Shown here: piece after piece, positions 2,645-49,412 of the stretch
Position numbering within the stretch: the stretch's first letter is position 1
Layout: every line of letters begins with the position of its first letter
Virus record (IMG/VR): IMGVR_UViG_3300005611_000006
Length of the DNA: 64,000 bases
Reading direction: 5' to 3' (one strand)
Source of the DNA: a virus
Taxonomy: Duplodnaviria; Caudoviricetes
Translations under genes and position numbers: made by a program
The notes under the pieces: generated by a model
The model's database searches: none
The model's input: only the letters and a program-made list of their open reading frames with translations
What the model was told of the DNA's origin: nothing

Positions 2645-3727
2645 ATGACTATTACTACTATTGCACAACGCAATACTTCTACCACTTGGGAATCCTTCTG
2701 CGAGTGGGTTACTTCAACTAACAATCGTCTTTATGTAGGTTGGTTTGGAACTCTTATGATTCCAACTCTTCTTGCCGCAACTACTTGTTTCATTGTTGCT
2801 TTTATTGCAGCACCACCAGTAGATATTGATGGTATTCGTGAACCAGTCGCCGGTTCTTTAATGTATGGAAATAATATTATTTCTGGCGCTGTTGTTCCTT
2901 CTTCCAATGCAATTGGTCTTCACTTTTATCCCATTTGGGAAGCTGCTTCTCTCGATGAGTGGCTATATAATGGTGGTCCTTACCAATTGGTTGTGTTTCA
3001 CTTTCTGATTGGTGTATTCTCTTATCTCGGTCGTGAATGGGAACTCTCTTATCGTCTTGGAATGCGTCCTTGGATTTGTGTCGCTTATTCTGCTCCTGTT
3101 GCCGCTGCTTCTGCAGTTTTCCTTGTCTATCCTTTCGGTCAAGGTTCCTTCAGTGATGGAATGCCTCTTGGAATCTCGGGAACGTTTAACTTCATGCTCG
3201 TCTTCCAAGCAGAACACAATATCCTTATGCATCCGTTCCATATGCTTGGTGTGGCTGGAGTATTCGGTGGGAGCCTCTTTAGTGCTATGCACGGAAGTCT
3301 GGTTACTTCTTCTCTCGTTAGAGAAACGACTGAAACCGAGTCCCAGAACTATGGATACAAGTTCGGTCAAGAAGAAGAAACATACAATATTGTAGCTGCT
3401 CACGGTTACTTCGGTCGTTTGATCTTCCAATATGCATCTTTTAACAATTCTAGAAGCTTGCATTTCTTCCTCGCTGCGTGGCCAGTGGTGGGAATCTGGT
3501 TTACCGCCCTCGGCGTCTCGACCATGGCTTTCAACCTCAATGGATTCAACTTCAACCAGTCCATCATTGATGGTCAGGGACGAGTCCTCAACACCTGGGC
3601 AGATGTGCTCAACCGTGCAGGACTTGGAATGGAAGTTATGCACGAAAGAAACGCCCACAACTTCCCGCTTGATCTTGCAGCAGCTGAGTCCACACCTGTG
3701 GCCCTGACTGCTCCTACTATCGGTTGA
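2645..3727 (+). CDS. psbA: Photosystem II D1 protein
   Basis: [36 protein letters not shown]; 360 aa from ATG 2645; Glu130 form; no intron. Confidence 0.99.
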
Positions 3728-3776: not shown

Positions 3777-3823
3777 TTAGGTATTTCTTCTATTGCAATT
3801 CCATTACTTTGTGTGATACTATT

Positions 3824-4150
3824 ATGATTGGTAAACTTGACCCCGAAGAAAATGTTATGAAAGATGTCATTAAAGATTATTGGTCGATAAGTAAAGATAA
3901 GTTTTTTGCTTGGAAGTCTAATGGAATAATGGATTTAGTTCAAAGTTCAATTGAAACTCTTGGATGGGATTCTTCAGACAATATTGCTGTTGAAATTGGT
4001 GGTACTCAAGTCTATGAGATTGATGGTGCTGGTACTAAATGGGCACCAACAAAAGGAACAAGAAAGTACAATAAAGATGCTTTTATTGTGATTAAAAATT
4101 TAGATCGCAATCCTACAATTTCTTCAAAATTAAATAACGAGGATAAATAA
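3824..4150 (+). CDS. Cyanophage-type hypothetical protein between psbA and psbD
   Basis: ORF 3809..4150, probable ATG at 3824 (MIGKLDPEE); TTGCAA/TACTAT promoter-like pair immediately upstream. Confidence 0.75.
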
Positions 4151-4155
4151 AAAAA

Positions 4156-5217
4156 ATGGTAGCTTCAACATTAACACAACAACAATCACAACGAGGATGG
4201 TTTGATGTCCTGGATGACTGGCTTAAACGAGATCGCTTTGTCTTTGTGGGTTGGTCTGGACTCCTTCTTTTTCCCACTGCTTATTTGGCAATTGGTGGCT
4301 GGCTTACTGGCACGTCGTTTGTTACAAGCTGGTACACCCACGGGTTGGCGTCTTCCTATCTTGAGGGTGCTAATTTTCTCACGGCAGCAGTGTCAACTCC
4401 TGCTGACGCTATGGGTCATTCTCTTCTTCTACTTTGGGGTCCTGAGTCTCAAGGAGATTTCGTCAGGTGGTGCCAACTTGGAGGGCTTTGGTCCTTTGTT
4501 GCTTTCCACGGTGCATTCGCCCTTATTGGGTTTATGCTCAGGCAGTTTGAAATTGCTCGTCTCGTAGGGATTAGACCGTACAATGCGATTGCTTTTTCGG
4601 GTCCTATTGCCGTATTTGTTAGTGTATTTCTCATCTACCCTCTCGGACAATCGAGTTGGTTCTTTGCGCCGTCCTTTGGCGTTGCGGCGATATTCAGATT
4701 CTTACTATTTCTACAAGGATTTCATAACTGGACGCTCAACCCCTTTCATATGATGGGAGTTGCTGGTATACTTGGGGGAGCACTTCTTAGTGCAATTCAT
4801 GGCGTTACAGTAGAGAATACATTGTATGAAGACGGTGATCAAGCAAACACTTTCAAAGCTTTTGACAGCACCCAAGAAGAAGAAACTTATTCAATGGTTA
4901 CTGCCAATCGTTTTTGGTCGCAAATTTTCGGTATTGCATTCTCCAATAAAAGATTCCTACATTTTCTGATGCTTTTCGTTCCAGTTATGGGACTTTGGAC
5001 TTCTTCTATTGGTATTATTGGATTGGCATTTAATTTGAGGTCTTATGAATTTGTGAGTCAAGAAATCCGTGCTGCTGAAGATCCAGAATACGAAACATTC
5101 ACAACAAAAAATGTGCTTCTTAATGAGGGCATTAGAGCGTGGATGGCTCCTGTAGATCAACCAGGAGAGCGTTTTGTCTTTCCTGATGAGGTTCTCCCGA
5201 GAGGGAATGCCCTCTAA
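4156..5217 (+). CDS. psbD: Photosystem II D2 protein
   Basis: [39 protein letters not shown]. Confidence 0.99.
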
Positions 5218-5251
5218 ATAATAATGCTTGTTTGTGGTTATTCAAGCAAAC

Positions 5252-5278
5252 GAAGGGGTCCATAAGACCCCTTTTTTA
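5252..5278 (+). terminator. Terminator after psbD
   Basis: AAGGGGTC-CATAA-GACCCCTT followed by a T run. Confidence 0.8.
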
Positions 5279-5289
5279 ATGTAAACTTG

Positions 5290-5297
5290 TATAAATA
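5290..5297 (+). promoter_or_regulatory. T4-type late promoter
   Basis: Exact TATAAATA 22 nt upstream of the endonuclease ATG. Confidence 0.75.
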
Positions 5298-5319
5298 ACT
5301 GTAACCACAAACAAAGCAG

Positions 5320-5952
5320 ATGAAATACTACACTTACGCATATTTGCGTGAAGACGGCACACCTTATTACATTGGTAAAGGTAAGGGAAATAGAATAAAT
5401 CTTAAACATAGAAGACGCAATACAAAACATTTTAGTCCTCCCAATGATAAAAATAGAATCATTTTTTTAAAACAAAACCTTACAGAAGAGGAAGCATTTA
5501 AACACGAAAAATATATGATTTTTGTGTTTGGTAGAAAAGATTTAGGGACAGGTATTCTTCGTAATATGAGTGATGGTGGAGAAGGATCTTCTGGATTTGT
5601 TATGAGTGAAGAAGCAAAAAGAAAATTGAGTATTTCTCATACTGGAAAAACTAAATCACTTGAAACCAGAACAAAAATGAGTGCTGCCAGTAAAGGTAGG
5701 AATATTGGAAGAAAGCATTCTGAAGAAGATAAGATAAAAATGAGAGGGAATACTGAAGAAAAATGTATTCATTCTAAAACTTATAGAATAACTTTTAATA
5801 ATGGTTATGTGATTGAAAGGAATAGTGTATATCGTTGGGCAAAGAGTGAAGGATATAGTCCACACCACATATATGCTATGGCATCTGGCAAAAGAAATAA
5901 ACATAAAGATATTGTATCTGTGGAAAAGGTAGAAAATCTGGAAGCACTCTAA
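5320..5952 (+). CDS. Free-standing GIY-YIG homing endonuclease with NUMOD3 repeats (Seg-like)
   Basis: YYTYAYL...PYYIGKG..R; conserved E and N; NUMOD3-like KSLETRTKMS and HSEEDKIKM. Confidence 0.85.
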   Translation: MKYYTYAYLREDGTPYYIGKGKGNRINLKHRRRNTKHFSPPNDKNRIIFLKQNLTEEEAFKHEKYMIFVFGRKDLGTGILRNMSDGGEGSSGFVMSEEAKRKLSISHTGKTKSLETRTKMSAASKGRNIGRKHSEEDKIKMRGNTEEKCIHSKTYRITFNNGYVIERNSVYRWAKSEGYSPHHIYAMASGKRNKHKDIVSVEKVENLEAL

Positions 5953-6009
5953 ACCACTTCCCCAACCATCACAGCACTCCTTTACAGGGGTGCTTTTTTA
6001 TTGTATAAT
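5951..6009 (+). repeat. Promoter/stem-loop repeat, copy 1 (PeSL-like)
   Basis: ACCACTTCC..AACCATCACAGCACTCC-TTTACA-17 bp-TATAAT with hairpin AGCACTCCT/AGGGGTGCT and a T run. Confidence 0.85.
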
Positions 6010-6032
6010 ACTCTTAGTGCTAATGGGGTAAT

Positions 6033-7102: not shown

Positions 7103-7422
7103 GTATTCCTAATTTCAAATCTAATCACGACTGGGAAGCATTTACCCAGATCTTTGATAGTCAATGGCATTGTAAAAGAGCATTGCTGAATCGTGTCAAG
7201 AATGATTTGTTCCCTGAATATAAGTCTTGGGAACAACTTACGGCACAACATATGGAAGTGATCAACGATATCGTATCCAATCTTGTCTACGAGTGTGAGC
7301 GTCAGTTCAAAGAGACCCATCAGGACTATAAGACTGATGATGATGACATCTTCATTCCCTATCGTTCTTTCAAAGAGAATGTAACAGAAGCATTGAAAGA
7401 GGCTCTAAAGGAGGAAAACTGA
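7099..7422 (+). CDS. Hypothetical protein
   Basis: 107-aa ORF, ATGA overlap. Confidence 0.7.
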   Translation: MSIPNFKSNHDWEAFTQIFDSQWHCKRALLNRVKNDLFPEYKSWEQLTAQHMEVINDIVSNLVYECERQFKETHQDYKTDDDDIFIPYRSFKENVTEALKEALKEEN

Positions 7423-7478
7423 CCACTTCCACAACTGTCACAGCGCCCTTTACATGAGGTGCTTTTTTATTGTATAAT
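7421..7478 (+). repeat. Promoter/stem-loop repeat, copy 2
   Basis: ACCACTTCCACAACTGTCACAGCGCCC-TTTACA-18 bp-TATAAT. Confidence 0.85.
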
Positions 7479-7501
7479 GACTTTGTAGTCAATCAAATCA
7501 A

Positions 7502-7924
7502 ATGACCTCTTTCTCCCAGACCATGAAGACAAAGTTTTTTGCCGAAGGGCGCGAACTTCCTGGTTGTGTAAATGATGGTTGTTGTAATAAAGTGACTGTT
7601 CGTGAATGGAAGTATTGGAGTTTCAAATCTGAATGTTCTCGTTGCACTAATGCTCGAAAGAAAGGAAAAACTATTCCTGGTGTAAATATTCACAAGAAAG
7701 AATATTGTGAAAACCATAACGGACAACTTGGATTTGAATGCCCTGTTCCTCGTGATGGTTGGATTGGTTTTCAGAACTCTCTTGACCTTGACCATCTTGA
7801 TGGAGACCATTATAATAATATTCCAAGTAATGTGAAAACTTTCTGCAAACTTTGTCATGGTAAAAAGTCACTTGAAAATGGTGATTGCAATTCAAATAAA
7901 TCTTCTGCTCGCAATATTGGATGA
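7502..7924 (+). CDS. Zn-binding HNH endonuclease
   Basis: LDLDHLDGDHYNNIPSNVKTFCKLCH; several Cys pairs. Confidence 0.8.
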   Translation: MTSFSQTMKTKFFAEGRELPGCVNDGCCNKVTVREWKYWSFKSECSRCTNARKKGKTIPGVNIHKKEYCENHNGQLGFECPVPRDGWIGFQNSLDLDHLDGDHYNNIPSNVKTFCKLCHGKKSLENGDCNSNKSSARNIG

Positions 7925-8712
7925 ATAAAATCTTACTCGGAGACTCTCAAGAAGTCTTAAAAACTATTGGTGATGATACTGTGCATCTTACTTGCACTTC
8001 TCCTCCATATTACAATGCAAGGTCTTATTCTATTTGGCCTACCTATGAGGAGTATTTGCAGTTTCTAACTAATGTATTTGAACAGGTCCTACGGGTTACT
8101 AAACCTGGAAGAATGTGTGCCGTCAATCTATCCCCTGTGATTCAAGCAAGAGAAAGTAGAGCACATGAGAGTAAGAGACTTGCTATTCCATTTCATTTCT
8201 TTTCCCTGATGGAGAAGATGGGATGGAAGTATATCGATGATATTGTATGGGTAAAACCAGAAGGTGCGGCTATCAATCGTAATGGTGGTTTTTACCAGCA
8301 TCGTAAACCAGTTGCATACAAACCTAATATTGTAAGTGAAACTATTTTTATCTTTCAGAAACCAGCAGACTTCTTGATTGATAAAGTTGTTAGATCATAT
8401 GAAGGTGATGTATTGAAACAGTCTTTGGTGAATGAAGAATATGAAAGATCCAATGTTTGGAAGATCAATCCAGAGACTGCATCCAAACATCTTGCACCAT
8501 ATCCAAAAGAGTTGAGTGATAAAATTGTAAAATATTATTCTTATGTTGGTGACTTGGTTTTAGATCCTTTTATGGGTTCTGGAACTACTGCTATCTCCTG
8601 TGTGGATAATAAAAGGCAATACATTGGAGTGGAACTGCATCAAGAATATGTTGACATGGCAGAAAATAGGATTGCAAAGTTTTCACCACTTGATAAATTT
8701 CTAGAAGACTAA
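7921..8712 (+). CDS. Beta-class amino DNA methyltransferase (probably N4-cytosine)
   Basis: Motif IV TSPPY near the N-terminus; motif I DPFMGSGTT near the C-terminus; H.A.YP. Confidence 0.92.
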   Translation: MNKILLGDSQEVLKTIGDDTVHLTCTSPPYYNARSYSIWPTYEEYLQFLTNVFEQVLRVTKPGRMCAVNLSPVIQARESRAHESKRLAIPFHFFSLMEKMGWKYIDDIVWVKPEGAAINRNGGFYQHRKPVAYKPNIVSETIFIFQKPADFLIDKVVRSYEGDVLKQSLVNEEYERSNVWKINPETASKHLAPYPKELSDKIVKYYSYVGDLVLDPFMGSGTTAISCVDNKRQYIGVELHQEYVDMAENRIAKFSPLDKFLED

Positions 8713-8770
8713 ACCACTTCCACAACCGTCACAGCACTCCTTTACAAGGGGTGGTTTTTTATTGTATAAT
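8711..8770 (+). repeat. Promoter/stem-loop repeat, copy 3
   Basis: ACCACTTCCACAACCGTCACAGCACTCC-TTTACA-18 bp-TATAAT. Confidence 0.85.
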
Positions 8771-22445: not shown

Positions 22446-23063
22446 ATGGTAGTAGCAAACAATCAGTTATTTATCAGTACTGAAGAAGTTACAAGAAAAT
22501 TAAAGCCAGCATTAACTACTTATTTTAGTGTATATATTCCTGAAACCAAAGAATATGGTGGAGTTAGTAGTAAAGACATTAATATATTTGCTTATGAAGC
22601 AGTTCTTCCAGGAACTTCATTTGAGATTGCACAAAATTTTGGTGATAGACAGGGTATTACGGAATCTTATCCAGTTAGAAGAATATACCCACCAATTGAT
22701 GTAAGTTTTTATGTTAATATTGATTATAATGTAATTAAGTATTTTGAAAACTGGATGCAAAGTATTTTTGAATTTAAAGGATCTCCAAGTCCAAGATATG
22801 GAAGATTTAATTATCCAGAAACATATGAAACTAATATAACAATTACTAAATTTGAAAGAGATTATAGGAAAAAATCTGATAGACTTTCCGATAAAGGATC
22901 TGCAGGATCTCCTGAAATTAAAACTAAAATAACTTATGATTTGATAAATGCATTTCCAACTAATATAATTTCTTTACCAGTTTCTTATTCTCAGACAGAT
23001 GTTTTAAAAACAACTATTACATTTAATTACGATTTATATTCTTATAGAGGACAACAAAACTAG
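22446..23063 (+). CDS. Tail-tube initiator / tube-fold protein (gp54/gp19-like)
   Basis: LPG..., NAFPTNI...VSY, TFNY; synteny. Confidence 0.6.
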   Translation: MVVANNQLFISTEEVTRKLKPALTTYFSVYIPETKEYGGVSSKDINIFAYEAVLPGTSFEIAQNFGDRQGITESYPVRRIYPPIDVSFYVNIDYNVIKYFENWMQSIFEFKGSPSPRYGRFNYPETYETNITITKFERDYRKKSDRLSDKGSAGSPEIKTKITYDLINAFPTNIISLPVSYSQTDVLKTTITFNYDLYSYRGQQN

Positions 23064-23096
23064 TGATAAATAATCATATCTGAATTTAGTATTTAA

Positions 23097-23828
23097 ATGC
23101 CTTTACCAAAAATTGTTACTCCATTATATGAGTTGACTTTACCTTCAAATAAGAAAACAGTTAAATATAGACCTTTTCTTGTGAAAGAAGAAAAGGTATT
23201 AATTCTTGCGATGGAAAGTGGTGATTCAATTCAAATTACAAATGCAGTTAAAAATATTTTAAAAGATTGTATTTTGAGTCGTGGAATCAAAGTAGATACT
23301 CTTCCAAGTTTTGATATTGAATACTTATTTTTAAATATTCGTGCAAAATCTGTAGGTGAGTCTGTTGAACTTATAATTACTTGTCCAGATGATGATGTAA
23401 CACAAGTAGATGTTACTGTAAATATTGATGAGATTCAAGTTGAAATTCCTAAAGATCATAAATCTGAGATTGAAATTGATGATAATGTAAAGATTAAAAT
23501 GAAGTATCCATCACTTCAAGAATTTGTTGATAATAATTTTGACTTTTCAAAACCAGATAGTAGTGAAGAAACTATCAATAGATCTTTTGAAATTGTTGCA
23601 TCTTGTATTGATATGGTATATACGAAAGATGAATCTTGGTCCACTTCTGATGTGACTAAGAAAGAATTAGTTGAGTGGCTTCAAACTTTTGATTCTAATC
23701 AGTTCAAAGGTATTGAAAATTTCTTTGATACTATGCCAAAATTATCACATACTTTAACTGTAAAAAATCCAAAAACTGGTGTAGAATCTGATATTGTTTT
23801 AGAAGGGTTATCAAGTTTTTTCGGTTGA
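23097..23828 (+). CDS. gp26: Baseplate hub subunit
   Basis: MPLPK, YRPFLVKEEK, RAKSVGE, LEGLSSFF. Confidence 0.9.
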   Translation: MPLPKIVTPLYELTLPSNKKTVKYRPFLVKEEKVLILAMESGDSIQITNAVKNILKDCILSRGIKVDTLPSFDIEYLFLNIRAKSVGESVELIITCPDDDVTQVDVTVNIDEIQVEIPKDHKSEIEIDDNVKIKMKYPSLQEFVDNNFDFSKPDSSEETINRSFEIVASCIDMVYTKDESWSTSDVTKKELVEWLQTFDSNQFKGIENFFDTMPKLSHTLTVKNPKTGVESDIVLEGLSSFFG

Positions 23829-24010
23829 TGCTAAGTCACGAAGACTTAGAATCATTTTATAGAATTAATTTTGCCTTGATGCAGTATCATAAATATTCAT
23901 TGACTGAGATTGAAAATATGATCCCTTGGGAAAGGGATATATATCTAACTTTACTTGAAAATCATATTAAGGAAGAAGAAGAAAAGTCATCAAGGAAGCA
24001 GAGTCTTTAA
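23825..24010 (+). CDS. gp51: Baseplate hub assembly catalyst
   Basis: NFALMQYHKYSLTEIENMIPWERDIY. Confidence 0.88.
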   Translation: MMLSHEDLESFYRINFALMQYHKYSLTEIENMIPWERDIYLTLLENHIKEEEEKSSRKQSL

Positions 24011-24013
24011 TCA

Positions 24014-26158
24014 ATGGACACTAAAGATCTTATTAATTTAAAGAAACAGAGAATCGAGGAGGAAATTCAGAAGATTATTCCCCCTGGATTCTCTTGGTCT
24101 GCTTATCCTACGGAGAAAGAAAGGCAAAAATATAGTCCAAACAGAAGTGTAGCAGAAGAAAATTGGAGAGAATTTTTAGGTCAAGATCTTGACTTAATAA
24201 TGCAAGTTGGTTATATTAAACCAACAAATCCAGAATATGCAAAGGCAATTGGAAATTTAAGATATTTTGGAGGAAAACTTAGTAACTACAAAGATTTTAT
24301 TAATAGTGGACCATTCTTCAAAGATCCAGAAGGTTCAAAAAACTTTGAAGAAGCTTGCGATTATATTATTAGGTTTTATGATCTTACAAAAATAATTGTA
24401 AGAAGAGTAGAAGAAGAGCAAAAAGTTTCAATAAGAAGAAAAGATTTAAAAGAAAAAAAAGAAAATCAATCATCAGAGAAACAGAAGAAAGCAACTAAAT
24501 TTGTATCTGGTGCAACTAAATTTAGACCAGGAAAAAGAATAACAATAAAATCTACCAAAGTAAGTGGTTTAATTCCTAAGAGAACTGCTCCACAAGAAGT
24601 TTTAGATAGAATATCAAAACCACAAGAATCTACTGTAGAAGATAGTATTGATGCCCCTAAAAAAGTTGTATCTGTTTTTGGAAAGTTAACTTTAGATTTA
24701 GTTCAGATTAATGATAACTTAGATAAAATTAGAGAAGTTATTGTAGAAGATTACAAAAAAACTAAGGAACGTAGAATAAACGAGACTAAAGAATATCGTA
24801 AGAGAGTTTCAGATCGTAGTAAAAAAATTGGTAAAAAAGATCTTGGGGATAGTAAAAAAGATCTAAAAGGTATTGTTAAAAAGTATGCTGGTAGTTTCTT
24901 TAGTGGTGCTGGTGGTGCTATTCGTGCTTTAGCATTATTTAATATGGCTGAGGCTCTAATGAGTGGAAATCCAATGAAAGCACTTGGTCCACTCCTTGGA
25001 ATTGGTGCTACATACTTACCTGTCATCGCGCAAACGATTGGTGGAATTATTGCAGCAAAAGTTATTGGTGGATTATTTAAGGGTGGAAGAGTAGCACCTA
25101 GAGGAAGAGTTCCTAGGGGAGGAAGAGTTCCTAGTTTTAGACTAGGAAAGTTTGGTAAACTTGCTGCTTTAGGAACTGGGGCACTTGCTTTAGGAGCAGC
25201 ATTTCTTAATAGAGATCAGAAAGATGAAGAAAGTTCAAAAATAGAACAAAGATTAGAATCTCTAAAAGAAGAGCAAAAAGAATCAGTATTACCAGAAGAT
25301 TTAGTTCCAATTCCACAAGAAGATCTAAAGAAATTTGAAGATTTGAATAAAAAGTTTGAGAAAGCGTTAGAATTTTTAATGAAAACGATTAAAGATAATG
25401 AAATTACAGATAAAGCTAAAATTTCATCTAGTGGTACTTCTTCTTCAGGATCATCAAGTTCTGGAGGGGGATCTAAAATTTCTCAAGAATTGCTCGATTC
25501 TGATATGAATCCGAATATGGCAGGATATTTAACTCGACTTTCTTACTTAGAAACTCGTATAAGAAATGTTCCTAATCAACAAGGGTCTGGAGCAGAAGGA
25601 TTTTTTCAAGCTATGGGACCTTTTACTCAAGAGGCAATTCAAGCATCAGGAGGATTATCTCCTCGTTCTCCGGACTTTACTACGGCAGCAAAGTCAACTA
25701 TGTCTTGGATATATGTAAATAACAAACCAGCATATGATGCAATTCTTCAGGGTAACTATGATCGTGCAGATGAACTTCTGAAAGGAACTTGGCCATCATT
25801 ACCTGGAGGATCTCAAGCACAGTCAGCGGACGTTCAAAGAAAGTCTAGAGAATATCTTAGAGGAGGAAGATCTTTCTCGACACAAACACCTGTAGAACCT
25901 CCAGATTTGACTCCAAGAACAAGGGAAAGTCTGCAAATTCCTACCCCAATTTCTCCATCTGTAAGACAATACCCCAATATTGAAACTTCTCCTCCTTCCC
26001 CAACCCCAATTATTACTCCAATACCGATTCAAAAAAAATCTGAATCATCTCCAATGTCAATGAGTGATCAAGGAAATGTAGTTATAAATCATGTCTCTAC
26101 AACATATTCTGATAATTTGTTTACATTATATTCTAGATTAATATATCAAATTGTATAA
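24014..26158 (+). CDS. Tape-measure/hub-like virion protein with a lambda-lysozyme-like domain
   Basis: Coiled-coil and Gly/Ala hydrophobic segments; LSYLET..AEGFFQ..TWPSLPGGSQ. Confidence 0.55.
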   Translation: MDTKDLINLKKQRIEEEIQKIIPPGFSWSAYPTEKERQKYSPNRSVAEENWREFLGQDLDLIMQVGYIKPTNPEYAKAIGNLRYFGGKLSNYKDFINSGPFFKDPEGSKNFEEACDYIIRFYDLTKIIVRRVEEEQKVSIRRKDLKEKKENQSSEKQKKATKFVSGATKFRPGKRITIKSTKVSGLIPKRTAPQEVLDRISKPQESTVEDSIDAPKKVVSVFGKLTLDLVQINDNLDKIREVIVEDYKKTKERRINETKEYRKRVSDRSKKIGKKDLGDSKKDLKGIVKKYAGSFFSGAGGAIRALALFNMAEALMSGNPMKALGPLLGIGATYLPVIAQTIGGIIAAKVIGGLFKGGRVAPRGRVPRGGRVPSFRLGKFGKLAALGTGALALGAAFLNRDQKDEESSKIEQRLESLKEEQKESVLPEDLVPIPQEDLKKFEDLNKKFEKALEFLMKTIKDNEITDKAKISSSGTSSSGSSSSGGGSKISQELLDSDMNPNMAGYLTRLSYLETRIRNVPNQQGSGAEGFFQAMGPFTQEAIQASGGLSPRSPDFTTAAKSTMSWIYVNNKPAYDAILQGNYDRADELLKGTWPSLPGGSQAQSADVQRKSREYLRGGRSFSTQTPVEPPDLTPRTRESLQIPTPISPSVRQYPNIETSPPSPTPIITPIPIQKKSESSPMSMSDQGNVVINHVSTTYSDNLFTLYSRLIYQIV

Positions 26159-26161
26159 TCT

Positions 26162-28237
26162 ATGGAAGATACTATTTTAAAGCCAAAGGAAACTAAGACT
26201 CCAAAGGTTACTACTAAAATAACAAAAGTTAGTTCTATTTTAGAGTTTTCTGAAAAAGCAAAAAAAAGTTCTATAAAGTTAAGAAGAACTTTCGAGAGAG
26301 GGATTTATCAAAAAAGAACTCAACTTTCAGTTCTAGATAGATATAAAAAAAGATTAGATCAAATTGAAAAAGAAGATGAAAGAGTAGCAAAAAGAAGATC
26401 AAGAAGAAAAATTAAACTTCCAGAGGTTAAAAGATTTGCTGGCAATTTTTTCACTCCTGGTGCATCTGATGATCCATTTAAAGCAATTGCAGCATTAGCA
26501 GCTTTTAATGCTGCAACTAGTGCTTCTAGTGGTAATCTTATGGATGCTATTCCCCCAGGATTAGTGGCAGGTGCTATTTTTGGGGCACCATTAATTGGTC
26601 TTGGAGTAAAATCTTTATTCAGAGGTGGTAAAAAAATACCAAGAGGATTTGATGTTACTGGAAGAAGAGTTACTAAAGGAGCACAAAAAAGGTATAGAAG
26701 AAGATTTGGTGATCGTGAGTTTAAAAAAAGATTTGGTAAAGATGCTTTAAAAAGATCTAGTAAAACTAGTCGCGTAGGGAAAAAAGTAGTCAAGGGTGGT
26801 AGAGTTGCAAAATCTTTCGGAAAATTTGGAGCAGCAATTGTTCCTGGTCTTGGAGCAGTTGTTGGTGCTGCTGATGCCACACTTAGAGCACAATCTGGAG
26901 ATGTAACTGGAGCATCTATAGCAGGAACATCTGCAGCATTAGATGCTGCAGCGGCAGCTAGCGCAGCAACTGGAATTGGATTGCCAGTTGCTGGTTTACT
27001 TTCAATAGGATCTTTTGCATTAGATCTTGTAAATTTGTCTAGAGATTTGTTTGGACTTAGTGAAGCAGAAGAAGAAAAAAATAAAAAATTAAAAGAAGAT
27101 ACTGAATCTCCTGAAGAAAGGCTTAAGAAGCAAACGGAGGAGCAGAAATCTCTTGTCGAAAGATTAAAAGTAGATCCTAATAAACTCACTTTTAATAAAA
27201 CTTTAAAAAGTTATTTAAAAGCAATTAATAAACTTGAAGATTTTGTTAAGCAATTTTCAATTAAATCTAGATCTGAGTTATCGGAGGAGGGAATTAATTA
27301 TCCTTCATCAAGACAATTAACTTCACAAGAATCATATAAAGGTCCTATAAGTGGAGAAACATTCTTCCCACTTCCTGGTGGTCAGGAAGGACAAGAACTT
27401 GGACAACAGTTTGGAGCATCTAGAGATAGTGGAACAAGATCCCATAAGGGATTAGATATGGTTAAATTTACGGGAGATCTAGCTGCTCCAGTTGTTGCAT
27501 ATAAAACTGGAAAAGTAATAGTATCAGAAACCAACGGGTACAATGGATATGTTAGATTAAGTCATGGTCAAGGATTACAGACAATGTATTATCATATAAC
27601 TCCATCTGTTCAAGTTGGCGATACTGTATATGGCGGACAACAACTTGGAACATTATACCCAGTAGGGCAAAATACACACTTACACTTTGAAATTATTAGA
27701 GATGGTATAAAGGTAGACCCTAAAGAATTTGGAACTGGAAGAAATAAAATTTCAACTCCACTATCAAGAGAAAGAGCGAAAGAATTATTTGATAACAAGT
27801 CAAAACCACAGGTCAAACCAAAGAAAGAAAAACCTGAAGAAAATAATGAACCTGGAGAAAATTCTAGTAATGAATTTAGAATTGATGGAAAAAGATTTTA
27901 TCAAGGATCAGATGAAAGATATTATAAGGAATCTCAAGATGAAACAGTAGTACTTACTGAAGAAGAATATAATAAAGCTAAAGAAAGATATGATAATAAA
28001 TCAGGAAATGTTTCAACTTTATCTAGAGGGAGAAATATTGCACAATATCCATCATACTCTCCAAGTTCAATGCAAAATCAAGTGATTCCAGTTTCAATAC
28101 CAACATTGAATCAGGATATCAAGCAACCATCAACAATGATTCAAAATTCTTCCGCACCTATGTTAATGCAAGATTTAAGTGAAGAACAAATGTTAAATAG
28201 TTTATACAAGAGAGTTTTTCTCAATACAGTAGTATAA
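26162..28237 (+). CDS. Tape-measure/hub-like virion protein with an M23 peptidase domain
   Basis: HKGLD, YYHI, HLHFE (M23 zinc ligands). Confidence 0.7.
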   Translation: MEDTILKPKETKTPKVTTKITKVSSILEFSEKAKKSSIKLRRTFERGIYQKRTQLSVLDRYKKRLDQIEKEDERVAKRRSRRKIKLPEVKRFAGNFFTPGASDDPFKAIAALAAFNAATSASSGNLMDAIPPGLVAGAIFGAPLIGLGVKSLFRGGKKIPRGFDVTGRRVTKGAQKRYRRRFGDREFKKRFGKDALKRSSKTSRVGKKVVKGGRVAKSFGKFGAAIVPGLGAVVGAADATLRAQSGDVTGASIAGTSAALDAAAAASAATGIGLPVAGLLSIGSFALDLVNLSRDLFGLSEAEEEKNKKLKEDTESPEERLKKQTEEQKSLVERLKVDPNKLTFNKTLKSYLKAINKLEDFVKQFSIKSRSELSEEGINYPSSRQLTSQESYKGPISGETFFPLPGGQEGQELGQQFGASRDSGTRSHKGLDMVKFTGDLAAPVVAYKTGKVIVSETNGYNGYVRLSHGQGLQTMYYHITPSVQVGDTVYGGQQLGTLYPVGQNTHLHFEIIRDGIKVDPKEFGTGRNKISTPLSRERAKELFDNKSKPQVKPKKEKPEENNEPGENSSNEFRIDGKRFYQGSDERYYKESQDETVVLTEEEYNKAKERYDNKSGNVSTLSRGRNIAQYPSYSPSSMQNQVIPVSIPTLNQDIKQPSTMIQNSSAPMLMQDLSEEQMLNSLYKRVFLNTVV

Positions 28238-37000: not shown

Positions 37001-39369
37001 CATTTAATATACAAAGTATAAAGTTTTCTCAAAGTATTGAGAATTTATATCCTAAAATTGATGTTGATAATCTCATAGCAGATCCATTAGAATCTAGAAC
37101 AATTGCTTCTAACAAAACTATAGGAAAAGTTGAAATTAATGATGTTGAGAACAGTAGTACTAAAGAATCTACAATTGAATTTCTGAGGGATTATGGATTA
37201 GCAAATCAAATTACTCAGATAAGTGTAACAGGATCAACTTGTACAGTAACTACAAATATTAATCACGGATTGAGGGGAATTCAGCAACTTGCAGTTCAAT
37301 CTGCAGGGTCTGGATTTGTAAATGGAACTTGGTATGATATACCAGTTTGTCCCTATGATGGGTCTACTCAAGGTAGAGGTGCCAAAGTTAACGTAACTGT
37401 AAGTGGTGGAGTAGTAGCTTCCGCAAGTGTATCATATCCTGGAAGTGGATATGACCCTGGAAGTCTTGTTAGAATAAAGGGAATTCCACATACAGCAACA
37501 GATGGAGCAGAAGCTGCATTGGAAGTTGCTTCTGTGTTAAATAATACTCTTGATGGTATTCAAATATTTAATTCATTAAATCCTGAAAATAATGGATTTT
37601 TTGAGATTACAAGTGTAACTCCAAATACTATTGTATATGAAAATTCATCTGCAGTAGAAGAAACTATTTCAACTGCAATTTTTATTCCATCAGGAGTAAG
37701 AAATGCTGTTTCCAATTTTTCTTCTGGGACAAGGGTAGTTACAACGAGTTCTCCAAATTCGCTTTCTGTAGGAAATAAGGTTTATTTTTCATCACTCCCT
37801 GGTCAATCATTTAATGTCGTTTCCGTATTATCATCAACTAGTTTCAAAATTGATGGGACTTCTGATCCATCAGTAGCTGACAACTTATATGAAATTTCAC
37901 TATCCACATCATTAAGAGATAGTAATTCTTCTGCTGAAAATTTAAAATCTAGACAGTATTCATTCTTCACTGGAATTTCTGCTAGAACTAGAAATAATAG
38001 TGCCGGTGAAATTAGTTCCACTGATTCTGCTGTAAGACTAGTAAGCACTATAGGATTTTTTGTAGGAGACTTCATTCAAATTGATGAAGAAATTATGTAT
38101 GTCACTTCTGTGGCAGGATCTAATTTAAATATTAGTAGAGGATTATTTAATACAAAACCAGTTTTTCATATTAGAAATTCTATAGTTAGAAAACTAAATC
38201 CAATTCCAATAGAACTGAGAAGAAACTCAATTCTTCGTGCTTCTGGACATACTTTTGAGTACACTGGATATGGTCCAGGAAATTATTCTACAGGAATGCC
38301 AACAAATCAGGATAGAGTTTTAAGTGACGATGAAGTTTTAATTTCTCAGTCTTTACCCAGTAAGGGTGGATTAGTCTTATATACTGGAATGAATAGTGAT
38401 GGAGAATTTTTTATTGGTAAAAAGAAAATTAATGCCTTAACTGGAGAAGAAGTTTTATTGTCAGTACCTTTATCTGAAGATATTACAGAAAGAACTTTTT
38501 CAAATACTTTAGATGTCACTAAACTTACAGTAAATAGGGAATTAGATGCTTCTACTGCAAAAATTACTGCAAAAACTATAGAGGTTTTAGAATCAATTAC
38601 TACTGAAGATATAACTATCAATGGAGACTTTAATATAGATTCAATTGATGTTAATGATATAAATGGAAATACTTTAACTATTGGTTCTTCTCCAGGTATA
38701 ACAACAATTTCTAATGGAACTGTTGATACTAATACAGTAGATTCTGATACAGTAAATTCTACTACAGTAAATGCTACTACAGTAAATTCTACTACAGTAG
38801 GAGTTACTACATTAAATGCTACTACAGTAGGCGTTACTACAGTAAATGCTACTACAGTAAATGCTACTACTTTTGTCGGAAAGGGAACGATTCCAATTGG
38901 TGGAATTATTATGTGGTCTGGAACTCAAGCAGAACTTGACGAAATACCCGAATGGAAACTTTGTGATGGTGATGATGGAACTCCTGATTTGAGAAATAGA
39001 TTTATTGTTGCTGCTGCTACTATTAGTAAAAGCGGAACTACTTCTCAAACAGGTTCTGATCCTTATGATCCAGGTGATACTGGTGGTAATGCTAATGCGA
39101 TTGTTCCTCCCCATTATCATTTCATTGCCGCTAATACTGGAGCAACTTCTGGTGAAGATGGAAAGGATCCACTAACAGACACGCAATTTGTTTCTGATGT
39201 GGGATTTGGTGGAGAATCAGAACTTGATGAATATCGTGATTATGTATTAGAAACTTCGAATGATGAAGCGAATGTTGGAAGATCAAGTGGACCATTTCCA
39301 TCTGATGATGGTGCAAATGCAAACTTACCACCATATTATGCACTTGCATTTATTATGAGAATATCATAA
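34072..39369 (+). CDS. Large virion structural protein with a C-terminal tail-collar-like domain
   Basis: RPFKTIQRAL N-terminal motif, beta-rich body, PIGGIIMWSG..TPDLRNRF..PPYYALAFIM; GATAAATA at 34032. Confidence 0.8.
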   Translation: MALARLENFLKNLSGTVLYVDPGQLDSTDSIDNRGNSALRPFKTIQRALLEAVRFSYVSGVNNDIFNQTTILLSPGNHFIDNRPGHYVDGSTIKTFSGSVSSIPELSLETNFDIDDPQNVLYTYNSIEGGVIVPRGVSIVAEDIRKTKIRPKYVPNPNDDLIDRSAIFRLTGACYIFGFSILDGDPNGTVFSSPSSLAKVVPAYSHHKLTAFEYADGKNKQTKGGVNLDKTDLDIYYYKVSLGYGNAAGSPIIVDGYDNLQPNPEENKIVGDLGQGSIQISDIIAGDGGSNGTNVITVTTSVDHGLSPFASILISNVGSDDQQRAEYNGPFTVAQVISDTEFTYRVPSTPLSSLNPDVVIGDDGSSVSIVSDTVSSASPYVFNCSLRSVFGMCGLHADGSKATGFKSIVTAQFTGISLQKDDRAFVLYDEDTGTYQYQDAYGTSKFLHQDSRSTYRPEWENFHVKSSNNAFIQCVSIFAIGYAKQFVSESGGDQSITNSNSNFGAISLFSNGFRDYSLSKDNCGYITHIIPPKEISSIEDQIRCITIDSSLTSSEASSNGNTRVYLKDYTSLLDPPDSKFRGFTIGAKDSDKIFYNSSGTEYSATISPNYKLEFNITDIDPLTGYITLLEPFDIGTETGISTSQKVRIVSKNGIIPDGLESNKVYFINSDIIPSNVKISSNLLNSSGGPIVDIKNQNGASTGNLKLVSKVNDRSPNDVSSPIKWDESNNQWYIQIESNSQFISSLSQDFIFYLKRNIDTRSEDDKSYRARIVIPKEFENASEPTTGFIIQNTSSDLFEEYSTEATLTSLSQFRNKNIIIDAWESSGTAHVITKNPHRLSSNNLVEIYNLKSDNEPNPVGLGSGTGFNGSFRVSSVESETEFTYSLPSGVNPGGISTYSSSSQTWLDEGNCDSSTYRVPPYTIDSNSRNNLPYFVCKEVSSAYQCYKIDTIQEFSPGSSDGVYYATLNAFKNTPSESPFNIQSIKFSQSIENLYPKIDVDNLIADPLESRTIASNKTIGKVEINDVENSSTKESTIEFLRDYGLANQITQISVTGSTCTVTTNINHGLRGIQQLAVQSAGSGFVNGTWYDIPVCPYDGSTQGRGAKVNVTVSGGVVASASVSYPGSGYDPGSLVRIKGIPHTATDGAEAALEVASVLNNTLDGIQIFNSLNPENNGFFEITSVTPNTIVYENSSAVEETISTAIFIPSGVRNAVSNFSSGTRVVTTSSPNSLSVGNKVYFSSLPGQSFNVVSVLSSTSFKIDGTSDPSVADNLYEISLSTSLRDSNSSAENLKSRQYSFFTGISARTRNNSAGEISSTDSAVRLVSTIGFFVGDFIQIDEEIMYVTSVAGSNLNISRGLFNTKPVFHIRNSIVRKLNPIPIELRRNSILRASGHTFEYTGYGPGNYSTGMPTNQDRVLSDDEVLISQSLPSKGGLVLYTGMNSDGEFFIGKKKINALTGEEVLLSVPLSEDITERTFSNTLDVTKLTVNRELDASTAKITAKTIEVLESITTEDITINGDFNIDSIDVNDINGNTLTIGSSPGITTISNGTVDTNTVDSDTVNSTTVNATTVNSTTVGVTTLNATTVGVTTVNATTVNATTFVGKGTIPIGGIIMWSGTQAELDEIPEWKLCDGDDGTPDLRNRFIVAAATISKSGTTSQTGSDPYDPGDTGGNANAIVPPHYHFIAANTGATSGEDGKDPLTDTQFVSDVGFGGESELDEYRDYVLETSNDEANVGRSSGPFPSDDGANANLPPYYALAFIMRIS
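38720..38870 (+). repeat. 15-bp tandem coding repeat (NATTV/NSTTV/GVTTV)
   Basis: Recurrent ACTACAGTAAATGCT units. Confidence 0.8.
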
Positions 39370-39398
39370 ATACCTCTATAGTGGAGCAGTAGAATTAA

Positions 39399-42300
39399 AT
39401 GTCAATACTAGACAATTTTTTCAAAGTTAAAGTTGGTTTAGGTGTTGGAACAGATACACTATATGCAAATGCTGTAGAAAAAAATATTGCTATAGGTGGA
39501 ACTTCAGCAGACTATAAACTAGATGTTTATGGAACTGTATATAGTGATAGAGATGTATTGGTCAGTCGTGATGTTGGAATTGGGACAACAGCACCTATTC
39601 ATGAATTAGACGTAAGAGGTGTTGGAATAATTTCTAGTAGGATTGGAATTGGAACCACTAATCCTGAACAAGTTTTACAAATAGGAACTGGAAGTTCTAT
39701 AATTGTAGCTACAGGTTTTGGAAGTTTTGGAATAGGAGTTTTAAATCCTGTACAAAATTTTCAAGTTGGATCTGGATCATCAGTAGTAGTTGTTACTGGG
39801 GTTGGTTCAATTGGTATTCGTACTGAAACGCCAACTTATGATTTTCAATTAATTTCTAGCCAAAGTTCAAGTGATTTTGTAATTACTGGACTTGGATCAG
39901 TTGGTATTAATACATTTTTTCCAAATTTTAATTTAGATATTGCAGGGGACTTAAGAGTTACTGGATTCGCTACAATCAATAATGAATTTGTAGGTGTTTC
40001 AACAATTGGATTTGCTTCAATTACTAATGAACTTGTAGGTGTTTCCACAATTGGATTCGCTACGATTACTAATGAATTTGTAGGTGTTTCCACAATTGGA
40101 TTTGCTTCAATTACTAATGAATTTGTAGGTGTTTCCACAATTGGATTTGCAACTATTACTGATGCTTATATAGGAGTTGCTACTGTAGGATTTGCAACTA
40201 TTACTAATGAATTTGTAGGTGTCTCTACTATTGGATTCGCTACTATTACTGATGCATTCATTGGAGTTGCTACTGTAGGATTCGCTACGATTACTAATGA
40301 ATTTGTAGGTGTTTCAACAATTGGATTTGCAACTATTACTGATGCTTATATAGGAGTTGCTACTGTAGGATTTGCAACTATTACTGATGCTTATATAGGA
40401 GTTGCTACTGTAGGAATTGCTACTATAGAAAGAGAAAAAGTAGTTGTTTCTGAAATTGAAAATCTTCTTGTTACTGGAATTACAACTACAGCAAAGTTAG
40501 ATGTTGGTATTGGTGCTACCTTAGCTAAATTTGAAAGTCTTGGAATTACTTCAGTTTATTCTTTAGATAATACGTTAATAAAAAATATTGAGCCAATTGT
40601 TGGTATTGGAACAACAATACCAACTAGAACCTTAGATATTGCAGGAGACTTAAGAGTTCGTGGTGAAATACTTGACGCAAATAATCAAGTTGGATTTGCT
40701 TATTCCGTTCTTTCTTCAAGTGGAGCTCCAGGAATTACTGATAGATTTGTTGATGGTGCAAATTTATTAATAAGAAATAAGAATTTTATTACTGAAGAAA
40801 TTGTAGGATTTATTACAGCAACTGATGGACCATTTGGAATTTATGGACCAAACTTTGATTATGGTCCAGTCGGAGTAGAAACTGGACGAGCAAAATGTAA
40901 AAGAGATCTTGGTATTATTATTGATGCAATTGCTTTTGATATTACTAGAGGAGGAAACTCTCAATCTGTTGGAGCAGGAATATCATATACTTTAGGAAAT
41001 TACTTAGAATCAAGTAATCCCGCACCAACTGGATTAGATGGATATGCTGGAGGATATGTAAAGTTTGCAACACTTGCTGGAATTAGTTCTATATCACATA
41101 TAGCACAATATGTTATTAATAACTCTCCACTTCCTAGATCACATCAATCTGGAGTTGGAAGTATTACACAATTAGTTGATACTGAAATTCTTCCAGATGG
41201 TGATAGTAATACAAATTATCAAGGTTGTGCAAATGTTGCATCAGCAATTCATACCACAGTAGGAATTGTAACGACTATTATAGAAAATAACGGAATTAAT
41301 GGTACTGGAATTAGTACAAACTATCCTTCAGGAGAATTAGAGTGGAAACCACCAGGACCTTTAATTGGAAATGAGTGGTTTGTTAATAAATTTGGTAGTG
41401 ATTCAAACAATGGGGATAGTCCAGGAAATGCTTTCTTAACTATCAAAAAAGCAGCATCAGTTGCAGAACCTGGTGATACAATTAGAATCTATGCTGGTCT
41501 ATACATTGAAGATGGTCCAATCTCTCTATCCGAAAGAGTTGCTGTTGTTGGAGAAGATCTTAGAAGAACTCTTGTTACAACTAAAGATAAAACAGATTTG
41601 TATTATGTTAAGAGAGGATGCTATGTAGCGCAGCAATCCTTTGTAGGTGAAAGTAATCCAGGCAAAGCGATGGTTTCATTCCCAACACAGGGATTTGGAT
41701 TTGCTGATGGAACAGAACAAAATTGGCAATCACCATATATTCAAAATTGCACTAATTTTGTTCCAGATAGTATTGGAATGAGAATTGATGGTTCCCGTGC
41801 TGGTGGATTTAAGTCAATGGTTCTTGATGCGTATACACAATATAATCAAGGTGGAATTGGTGTTTCAATTACTAACTTTGGATATGCTCAATTAGTTTCT
41901 CTATTTACTATTTGTTGTGATACTGCGGTTTTTTGTGATAGTGGTGGGGTTTGTGATTTAAACAATAGTAACTCTAGTTTTGGAAATTTCGGTCTTGTTT
42001 CAAATGGGGCAACTCCATTACAATATATTGGAGAAGTAACTAATGTACCTGATGTAGATAATATTGATAGTATTACAATTAATGTTGGTGCTGGAGCATC
42101 TCAAGAATTTATTGATTCTGTAGATCTTCTTCGTTTAAACAAAGATTTTATTGCATCTGAAGTTGTAGGATTTATAACAAGTTCAGACGGTCCTTTTGGT
42201 GCTGCTGGTACTAATTTTGATTATGGTGGTTCTAAAAAAGGAAGAGAACTTTGCAGGAGAGACTCTAAAATAATTATTGAAAAAATTGCCTCAGATATCT

Positions 42301-48198: not shown

Positions 48199-48209
48199 GA
48201 GAAAATTCT

Positions 48210-48707
48210 ATGGCAATTTTACAAACAGATTTTAATAATATAGCAGTTACTAATAATAGTGGAAAAATTTTATTAAGGACTTCTGGGTCTGTTCTAGACT
48301 ATGTTCAGAATGGTACCACTCGTGCCGAGATTAACGTAAGTGTAGGCAATGGACGTGAAATTTCGAGAATAAGACCATCTATAACTCCAAAATCAAATGC
48401 TTCCAGAATTTTAGTAACGTTTAATATAAATTGGAGTACTGACCAAAATGGTTTTTATTACTTTTCATTAAGGAGATACATTAATGGGGCTTTAAATTAT
48501 ACGACAGGTAGATTAATAACTTTTAATATAGGTGGTATTGATCCTTCACAGCTTTATAATCCAATGAATTATACTTATATTGATCATCCAAACACAACTG
48601 CAACTGTTCAATATAGAGTACTGGTTACTGCTAGTGGGCCTCTGGAGATGGATATAAATAGAGTTGGAAATCCTTATAGTTCAATGCAATTGTTGGAGTT
48701 AGCATAA
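48210..48707 (+). CDS. Fibre-tip-like beta-sandwich protein
   Basis: ITPKS..SRILV, YIDHP.TT..VQY; AGGAG RBS. Confidence 0.65.
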   Translation: MAILQTDFNNIAVTNNSGKILLRTSGSVLDYVQNGTTRAEINVSVGNGREISRIRPSITPKSNASRILVTFNINWSTDQNGFYYFSLRRYINGALNYTTGRLITFNIGGIDPSQLYNPMNYTYIDHPNTTATVQYRVLVTASGPLEMDINRVGNPYSSMQLLELA

Positions 48708-49031
48708 ATGGAATCAAATTACTTTTTAATTGAAGCAATAAAAAAATTATACTCAGGAACTTTTAGTGTTACTGAAACTGGAATTTATGAAGAAATTGAG
48801 TGGTTATCTGAAGATATTGAAAAACCAACTCTTGAAGAAATTCAAGCAGAAGTGCAAAGACTTGAAGAAGAATGGGAAAAAACAGAATATCAAAGATTTC
48901 GATCTAAAGAATACCCTCCACTAGAAGATTTTGTAGATGCTTATTATTGGGTACAAAAAGGAGAAAGTACTCTAATGGATGAATATATTTCTAGGTGTGA
49001 TGAGGTAAAAGAAAAATATCCAAAATCTTAA
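48708..49031 (+). CDS. Tail fibre assembly-like small protein (XkdW-like)
   Basis: KPT.EEI, YQR.R..EYP, VKEKYPK. Confidence 0.6.
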   Translation: MESNYFLIEAIKKLYSGTFSVTETGIYEEIEWLSEDIEKPTLEEIQAEVQRLEEEWEKTEYQRFRSKEYPPLEDFVDAYYWVQKGESTLMDEYISRCDEVKEKYPKS

Positions 49032-49067
49032 ATAATAGATAAATAACTCTAGAATTAATTTAAAGTA

Positions 49068-49412
49068 ATGTCAGTAGCAGTAGTCAATTTAGTTATTGAG
49101 CAAGGTGCTGACTTTTCATTATCTTTAACATTGAAGGCAAATGGAGAACCTATAGATTTATCTGGATATACATATTCAGCTAAAATGAAAAAGCACTACG
49201 GTGCAAATACTTCATACCCATTTACAGTCACTCCAGGAACTCCTCTTACAAATGGAGTAGTAAGTATTGGAATGTCAGAATCTTTAACCGCAACAATTCC
49301 TCCCGGAAGATATGTTTATGATGTTTTAATTACTGATGCTGGAATTGGTTCATCTGCTATTACATCAAAATACTTTAAAGGTACAGTTATAGTGGAGGGA
49401 AGTGCGTCTTAA
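49068..49412 (+). CDS. Fibre attachment/adaptor protein (BppU-like)
   Basis: NLVIEQGADF, DLSGYT, GRYVYDV; GATAAATA at 49038. Confidence 0.65.
   Translation: MSVAVVNLVIEQGADFSLSLTLKANGEPIDLSGYTYSAKMKKHYGANTSYPFTVTPGTPLTNGVVSIGMSESLTATIPPGRYVYDVLITDAGIGSSAITSKYFKGTVIVEGSAS

Follow-up and report, generated by a model that had tools for sequence, protein, structure and literature searches.

The stretch analyzed here (the window) comprises 64,000 nucleotides (nt) of the IMG/VR virus record IMGVR_UViG_3300005611_000006 and is part of a T4-like cyanomyovirus. At issue are its psbD gene, which encodes the D2 protein of photosystem II (PSII), and the gene that follows it. A complete psbD of 353 amino acids lies on the plus strand at positions 4156 to 5217 (Pfam Photo_RC, 7.5e-72; D2 chains of the PDB, 1e-208) and is separated by a 102-nt spacer from a free-standing homing endonuclease gene of 210 amino acids on the same strand (positions 5320 to 5952; NUMOD3, 3.4e-8; phrog_314, 6.6e-14). 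A PeSL-like terminator-promoter repeat of about 65 nt (positions 5953 to 6016, plus strand) forms the right-hand end of this cassette. The 3' part of psbD, from position 4906 to position 5217 (plus strand), is a divergent tail of the type referred to here as FTTKN. Comparison of the sequences supports the conclusion that the endonuclease gene and the tail make up one unit that moved between phage backgrounds, because a nearly identical tract covers both, because the tails form one clade while the 5' parts of the same genes fall into at least four, and because endonuclease and tail are linked across loci.

Alignment of the window D2 with that of Thermosynechococcus (T.e.; window residue equals T.e. 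number plus 1) gave the tail differences W266F, F270L, L291F, A295S, D297E, F311Y, Y315T, I319V, H336G, N338R, and E343D. The earlier note had named D297E, F311Y, Y315T, H336G, and E343D, with E312 and K317 kept, and the alignment matched it exactly. Also retained were Y160, H189, H197, H214, W253, H268, R294, and R348, and the window psbD thus encodes a full-length Photo_RC protein with its cofactor ligands and channel residues. The replacements fall on residues that do not vary in D2 clusters of tens of thousands of sequences, and they lie on either side of E312 and K317, the Cl-1/proton-gate residues, which are themselves unchanged. A literature search returned work on E312 and K317 and none on Y315, D297, or H336. 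Relative to a consensus of 75 cyanophage alleles without the endonuclease, the window has 12 differences in residues 241 to 353, of which 11 are rare (at most 2 of 75 alleles), versus just 2 rare differences in residues 1 to 240. The tail is under purifying selection, with a rough estimate of omega of about 0.05, for which synonymous divergence (dS) was saturated (0.9 to 2.2) and nonsynonymous divergence (dN) was inflated by serine and leucine codon-family switches; together with the retained key residues, this points to a tail that continues to function. The description of the tail codons as AT-richer held in part: at a G+C content of 0.401, the window tail is about 2 standard deviations under the canonical mean of 0.432, and G+C at third codon positions is 0.30 versus 0.39, but the value is within the canonical range (minimum, 0.395) and G+C falls toward the 3' end in all psbD alleles (from 0.482 to 0.432 in canonical ones). 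Longer D2 proteins (P0001 to P0005; 426 to 577 amino acids) were considered as D2-endonuclease fusions and rejected, as they carry internal D2 duplications and are probably assembly chimeras.

The earlier note had suggested that psbD genes with and without the downstream endonuclease be aligned, and this comparison placed the divergence boundary at about positions 4876 to 4906. Up to about position 4900, every 60-nt stretch of the window psbD found a match of 85 to 100% among endonuclease-free alleles (97 to 100% to Sf-FR1 at positions 4306 to 4455), such that positions 4156 to 4900 (plus strand) appear as a mosaic of common cyanophage alleles. Beyond about position 4906, the best endonuclease-free match was mostly 77 to 83%, compared to 85 to 100% for endonuclease-linked alleles. 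The divergent tract thus covers the last approximately 105 codons (approximately 310 nt) of psbD. Mosaicism as such extends over the whole length of psbD and is independent of the endonuclease. The same boundary emerged when two other loci bearing the endonuclease, L179 and L002, were compared with each other: their psbD genes showed 60 to 88% nucleotide identity in the 5' part and 95 to 100% identity from about position 4876 to where the endonuclease gene ends. In trees, the 3' part placed all FTTKN-type alleles in a single clade (support, 0.965), whereas the 5' parts of these alleles were interspersed with ordinary alleles in at least four clades. The shared tract, the incongruence of the 5' and 3' trees, and the window boundary at about position 4906 together are the pattern of co-converted flanking sequence.

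The same endonuclease (97 to 99% amino acid identity) was found in two backgrounds other than that of the window, namely, L179 and a genotype represented by L002, L003, L164, L165, and L178. The spacer and endonuclease gene of the window are 97 to 100% identical to those of L179 and L002, whereas psbA is 79 to 80% identical and the downstream genes are unrelated. No close relative of the window was present among 50,697 sequenced phage records, in which DNA-level matches were limited to psbA and psbD at about 80%. A search with a DNA pattern for E-Y-E-T-F-T-T-K-N, which contains F311Y and Y315T, recovered 19 uncultured phage contigs (6 from IMG/VR and 13 from metagenomes). The pattern occurred in no psbD among the genomes of 185,579 prokaryote species, and a host origin of the motif was rejected, since the single genome match was a contig of a Bacteroidetes metagenome-assembled genome without psbD and no cyanobacterial genome has the motif. 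Likewise, none of the 421 sequenced phage records with psbD carried an FTTKN-type tail, the best tail identity being 87.9%.

At 15 of the 18 distinct FTTKN-type loci with a resolved downstream region, an endonuclease gene lay within about 100 nt of the psbD stop codon, versus 2 of 75 canonical loci (Fisher test, 1e-12, kinship ignored). These post-psbD genes belong to two families: GIY-YIG, in three lineages (97 to 99, 81, and 57% amino acid identity), and the EndoVII type (phrog_3322/1035), which is F-CphI-like and is present in two lineages. At least eight different endonuclease lineages occupy the post-psbD site. Presence at this site varies: Sf-FR1 and 72 further canonical (FYTKN-type) loci lack an endonuclease, and 19 loci have one (15 FTTKN type and 4 canonical type). 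Other genes downstream of canonical psbD were varied, included no nuclease among those tested, and showed no link to tail divergence. Each of the 16 endonuclease-linked alleles has two or more rare tail replacements (medians, 12 and 8), compared to a median of 0 for endonuclease-free alleles (kinship ignored). In a sample picked by overall psbD similarity alone, endonuclease-linked alleles scored 2, 3, and 12, whereas 70 endonuclease-free alleles averaged 0.20 (P = 1e-5). Endonuclease-linked alleles outside the FTTKN clade (L108, L158, L025, and S-SKS1) bear rare tail substitutions that are different from those inside it, and within the clade the extreme D2 C terminus diversified repeatedly. 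In the cultured phage S-SKS1 (L183), an EndoVII-type gene follows psbD at a distance of 60 nt, and the tail diverges in a different way (score, 11). In one contig (L025/L026), a GIY-YIG relative lies between psbA and psbD (positions 4001 to 4621) in addition to an EndoVII-type gene after psbD (approximately positions 7140 to 7700), and the D2 protein carries E310S, F311Y, and F341L. A D2 fragment encoded by L163 (positions 1 to 804; residues 87 to 353) is divergent throughout, with 25 rare tail replacements and further changes such as HNWTLNP to HNYLLNP, and is the most divergent phage D2 seen.

The 210-residue protein consists of a GIY-YIG part (residues 1 to about 90), a NUMOD3 linker (about 92 to 145, with two NUMOD3 stretches recognized by Pfam), and a C-terminal DNA-binding domain (about 146 to 207); the match to phrog_314 in PHROGs is to a family annotated as homing endonuclease. 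The N-terminal 90 or so residues were almost unvarying across 20 aligned relatives, in which Y4, Y6, Y16, Y17, G19, R25, E63, and N82 were invariant, together with the motifs YTY (residues 4 to 6) and YYIG (residues 16 to 19). The protein thus has the GIY...YIG motif pair with the catalytic Arg, Glu, and Asn, as well as a modular DNA-binding extension. An AlphaFold2 model (pLDDT, 72) was compared with known structures. For residues 1 to 85, VIA-align gave Z scores of 6.9 to the GIY-YIG domain of PD-T4-3 (9u75), 6.1 to that of UvrC, 5.7 to the I-TevI catalytic domain, and 4.1 to T4 EndoII; several GIY-YIG families ranked at the top, every Z score being below 8, and Foldseek gave E values of about 0.6 to 1.5, such that consistent GIY-YIG matches came from VIA-align only. 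Residues 135 to 207 resembled the DNA-binding part of I-HmuI (Z, 8.1) and the I-TevI DNA-binding domain (Z, 4.4). From the motifs and the model, the protein appears to be an intact I-TevI/Seg-like modular enzyme. The open reading frame (ORF) occupies an intergenic slot of its own, with its own terminator, TATAAATA element, and start codon, and both psbD and psbA are uninterrupted. The claim in the earlier note of a free-standing GIY-YIG endonuclease beside psbD was therefore upheld by the intact ORF, the motif set, and NUMOD3. Relatives of the endonuclease at 45 to 66% identity occupy other sites in cyanophage genomes, at least seven of them immediately following psbA or lying between it and psbD.

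The spacer holds four elements, all on the plus strand. Directly after the psbD stop codon is the 5' arm of a long-range RNA stem (positions 5225 to 5241; RNA fold), followed by a terminator-like hairpin rich in G+C with a T run (positions 5253 to 5277; sequence and fold), the element TATAAATA (positions 5290 to 5297), which fits the T4-type late promoter consensus and is on that basis a putative promoter, and the 3' arm of the stem (positions 5301 to 5318), which ends 1 nt before the endonuclease ATG. The stem has a folding energy of -34 kcal/mol (z = -5.7 versus shuffled sequence), and the same layout, built from unrelated arm sequences, recurred in the diverged cassettes of L176 (81% amino acid identity; z = -6.7) and L171 (57%; z = -7.2). 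A hairpin equivalent to that at positions 5253 to 5277 was found in every endonuclease cassette inspected, and a conserved TATAAATA precedes the endonuclease gene not only in the window but also in L179, L176, L171, L162, L108, L025, L177, and L158. Control by a late promoter and a hairpin is typical of T4 endonuclease genes, which are masked on read-through RNA and open on late RNA. At the level of structure, the window has this T4-style layout, with a putative late promoter inside a stem that would mask the start codon on read-through RNA, and the corresponding regulation is presumed.

The cassette measures 735 bp between the psbD stop codon and the PeSL-like repeat. In Sf-FR1, the psbD stop codon is followed directly by the repeat that is found after the window endonuclease stop codon, indicating that the cassette fills the slot between stop codon and repeat. 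The repeat, ACCACTTCC...hairpin...TTTTTTATTGTATAAT, is present three times in the window (positions 5953 to 6016, 7422 to 7478, and 8713 to 8769), each copy starting right after a stop codon, and also in Sf-FR1, L002, L003, L171, and L179; by its sequence it resembles the PeSL promoter-terminator cassettes. The PeSL does not form the junction in every case, since L179 and L002 have a 52-nt spacer between it and the endonuclease gene. The window endonuclease ORF ends in 9 nt (GCACTCTAA, encoding AL and the stop codon) that equal a canonical psbD end. ORF ends differ among relatives, being GCACTATAA in L002 and GCCCTCTAA in L179, and relatives have variable C-terminal extensions. The possibility that GCACTCTAA and the following 65 nt or so are a stranded psbD end was reduced to a weak hint, since the 65 nt are the thrice-repeated PeSL-like element and only 6 nt beyond the stop codon are left. 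L171 and L166 have an identical extreme C terminus and differ in that L171 has the endonuclease and L166 lacks it, but they were rejected as a filled- and empty-site pair because of their nucleotide identity of only 79% and an extra ORF before the PeSL in L171.

Together, these results are probably best explained by a selfish 735-bp cassette that spreads by intronless homing and co-converts a psbD tail that protects its carrier. During co-infection, the enzyme would cut an endonuclease-free genome at a site within or close to the conserved 3' portion of psbD. With the endonuclease-bearing genome as the template, repair would then copy the endonuclease gene and co-convert the last approximately 310 nt of psbD, and the outcome would be a chimeric psbD with common 5' three-quarters and a foreign tail. 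It is most likely that the tail replacements, chiefly D297E, F311Y, and Y315T, shield the carrier from cutting. Homing endonucleases typically tolerate synonymous variation, and escape would therefore need changes at codon positions 1 and 2. Expression would be gated: on psbD read-through RNA the long-range stem would bury the start region, whereas a late transcript starting after TATAAATA would lack the 5' arm and leave the start region open. The earlier note had proposed a psbD homing unit that drags along a recoded tail; co-transfer as one unit is supported by the shared tract, the incongruent trees, and the association across at least eight lineages, and cleavage and resistance are steps that we infer.

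Several observations weigh against this account. The cleavage target could lie elsewhere, for example, at a junction of stop codon and PeSL that the insertion destroys. The occurrence of D297E, F311Y, and Y315T with both GIY-YIG and EndoVII cassettes would, from the sequences, fit an old, reused tail lineage as well as convergent escape. Proof of GIY-YIG membership from sequence alone failed: the Pfam GIY-YIG model (PF01541) stayed below threshold (E = 0.34; 11.7 bits versus a cutoff of 22.6), and neither a PDB sequence search (E = 0.27) nor a PDB profile search matching a GIY-YIG protein (E = 0.03) was significant. The family has diverged too far for this model to recognize it, and the assignment thus rests on motifs and fold. 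The window tail is only 77 to 93% identical to those of L179 and L002 in patches (positions 4966 to 5025 and 5086 to 5205), suggesting that it recombined further with other endonuclease-linked alleles. FTTKN-type loci were found by a motif search and many are related, so the Fisher test overstates their independence. FTTKN-type tails are also present without an adjacent endonuclease at L163, L166/L182, and L172, which could be donors, losses, or tail-only recipients. The earlier note would have given up its proposal if the same substitutions were common without the endonuclease, and here the outcome was divided. D297E, F311Y, and Y315T hardly occur outside endonuclease-linked alleles (exceptions, L163, L166, and L172), but H336G, N338R, and E343D also occur in the endonuclease-free L037, L108, and L118, the W266F/F270L pair is an ordinary Prochlorococcus-type motif, and L291F is common, the last two also occurring without an endonuclease.

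We considered the possibility that the endonuclease homes at a target outside the tail, such as the junction of psbD stop codon and PeSL, and that the tail is simply the donor's allele with no role in immunity. Since the FTTKN-type tails form one clade, a single origin is possible; L163, which has no adjacent endonuclease, a score of 25, and divergence over residues 87 to 353, could represent such a donor lineage, and identical core substitutions accompany two unrelated endonuclease families. Such hitchhiking nevertheless appears unlikely in view of the invariance of the replaced residues among very large D2 clusters, the other rare tail substitutions in L108, L158, L025, and S-SKS1 outside the clade, and the repeated diversification of the extreme C terminus inside it. 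Ordinary homologous recombination, using psbD on the left and the PeSL-like repeat on the right with the endonuclease as a passive or dead passenger, would require no nuclease at all. PeSLs are reported to mediate the shuffling of modules among T4-type phages (PMC2839356 and PMC4122927), the right boundary in the window is exactly such a repeat, whose copies also occur in other phages, and psbD is mosaic irrespective of the endonuclease. We judge this explanation to be distinctly improbable, since the endonuclease ORF is intact, has all of its catalytic residues, and is 97 to 99% conserved across three backgrounds. Moreover, at least eight endonuclease lineages share a single site, other downstream genes have no such link to tail divergence, and a 52-nt spacer precedes the PeSL in L179 and L002.

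Least probable of all, and by our estimate very improbable, is an adaptive D2 variant that tunes PSII to a host or light niche and has come to lie beside an endonuclease by coincidence. Purifying selection on the tail and the position of the substitutions around E312 and K317 would be in keeping with it. However, none of the psbD genes in the 185,579 prokaryote species searched has the motif, and thus no host D2 among them is of this kind; the tail tracks the presence of the endonuclease and not the 5' lineage of psbD, and different endonucleases accompany different tail variants. The mechanism that we favor is intronless homing with co-conversion.

psbD would be a new target for a known homing mechanism; a literature search found no paper on an endonuclease targeting or accompanying psbD. 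Unusual here are the recoding of near-invariant D2 residues and the use of one slot by two endonuclease families. The closest mechanistic parallels are SegF (gene 56) and SegG (gene 32) of T4, which are described as free-standing GIY-YIG endonucleases with intronless homing where PMC3037559 cites Belle et al. (2002) and Liu et al. (2003). As in those cases, the GIY-YIG gene of the window lies in an intergenic slot beside a conserved gene of a T4-like phage, its presence varies among relatives, and flanking markers are co-converted. Unlike in those cases, the neighboring gene is psbD and the co-converted tract alters about 11 amino acids, some of them near-invariant, and cleavage and exclusion are here only presumed. 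F-CphI of cyanophage S-PM2 is a homing endonuclease with an EndoVII motif that cuts psbA (Zeng et al. 2009; PMC6083498). It shares with the window enzyme the free-standing state, a place in the psbA-psbD region of a cyanomyovirus, and a PSII core gene as the (for the window, putative) target, and its EndoVII-motif relatives (phrog_3322/1035) take the same post-psbD slot in L162, L167, L168, and S-SKS1. It differs in that the S-PM2 genome is protected by a group I intron in the site and not by recoded codons, and in that the window enzyme is of the GIY-YIG/NUMOD3 type and lies after psbD. PeSL cassettes, the agents of shuffling in the reports cited above, are matched by the window repeat in its hairpin, T run, and TATAAT right after stop codons and in its bounding of variable gene modules; in the window, however, the repeat is the right-hand border of the cassette and not the favored mobile agent. 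The foreign gene end itself has a parallel in fungal mitochondria. In atp6 of Allomyces macrogynus, a mobile endonuclease ORF brings a foreign replacement C terminus for the host gene and leaves the old end as a stump. The window endonuclease ORF similarly arrives with a foreign gene end, but only 9 nt of a canonical psbD end (GCACTCTAA) are kept, which is too short for a stump.

Cyanophages carry psbD as a core auxiliary metabolic gene, whose mosaicism is usually ascribed to recombination between phage and host. The data point to a second driver, namely, selfish endonucleases situated behind psbD that transfer a foreign gene end between phages, and thereby offer a testable account for part of this mosaicism. 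They also link endonucleases to replacements at D2 positions where cyanobacteria and plastids otherwise show no variation, and they suggest that phage homing endonucleases have a second photosystem target in addition to psbA, the target of F-CphI. Whether endonuclease conflict, and not photosynthesis, drives the repeated replacement at the near-invariant lumenal D2 residues D297, F311, and Y315 and the segment from 336 to 346 is a more doubtful matter, and we put it forward tentatively. If this is so, infected cells would assemble PSII with a D2 of altered donor-side properties, and such tails could leak into host psbD through the phage-host recombination already proposed. The alleles provide a natural set of viable D2 tail variants beside the chloride and proton channel, and the cultured phage S-SKS1 provides an experimental system.

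In the window, psbD is preceded by an uninterrupted psbA (D1; positions 2675 to 3727, plus strand, from the ORF list), and a small phrog_475 ORF of unknown function lies between them (positions 3809 to 4150). A homologue of this ORF sits after psbD in L114, marking it as a mobile small gene of the psbA-psbD region. In three other loci, psbA is split by gaps of about 200 to 250 nt: at positions 322 to 546 of L176 (codon about 289) and at approximately positions 4295 to 4502 (minus strand) of L171 and positions 1449 to 1698 of L177 (codon about 328). These gaps probably represent group I introns inserted at two distinct positions, and all three loci also bear endonucleases after psbD. In S-SKS1 (NC_020851.1, positions 22787 to 27764), EndoVII and HNH genes directly follow psbA. 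Farther downstream in the window, a Cys-rich, HNH-like ORF of 140 amino acids (positions 7502 to 7924; weak PHROG HNH matches) overlaps by 4 nt a DNA methyltransferase-like ORF of 263 amino acids (positions 7921 to 8712), and the pair sits exactly between copies 2 and 3 of the PeSL-like repeat. Very long arrays with a 9-nt period, coding for collagen-like Gly-X-Y, together with 15-nt and 45-nt tandem repeats, extend over positions 44426 to 51000 and 38700 to 40500, within large ORFs that probably encode fiber proteins.

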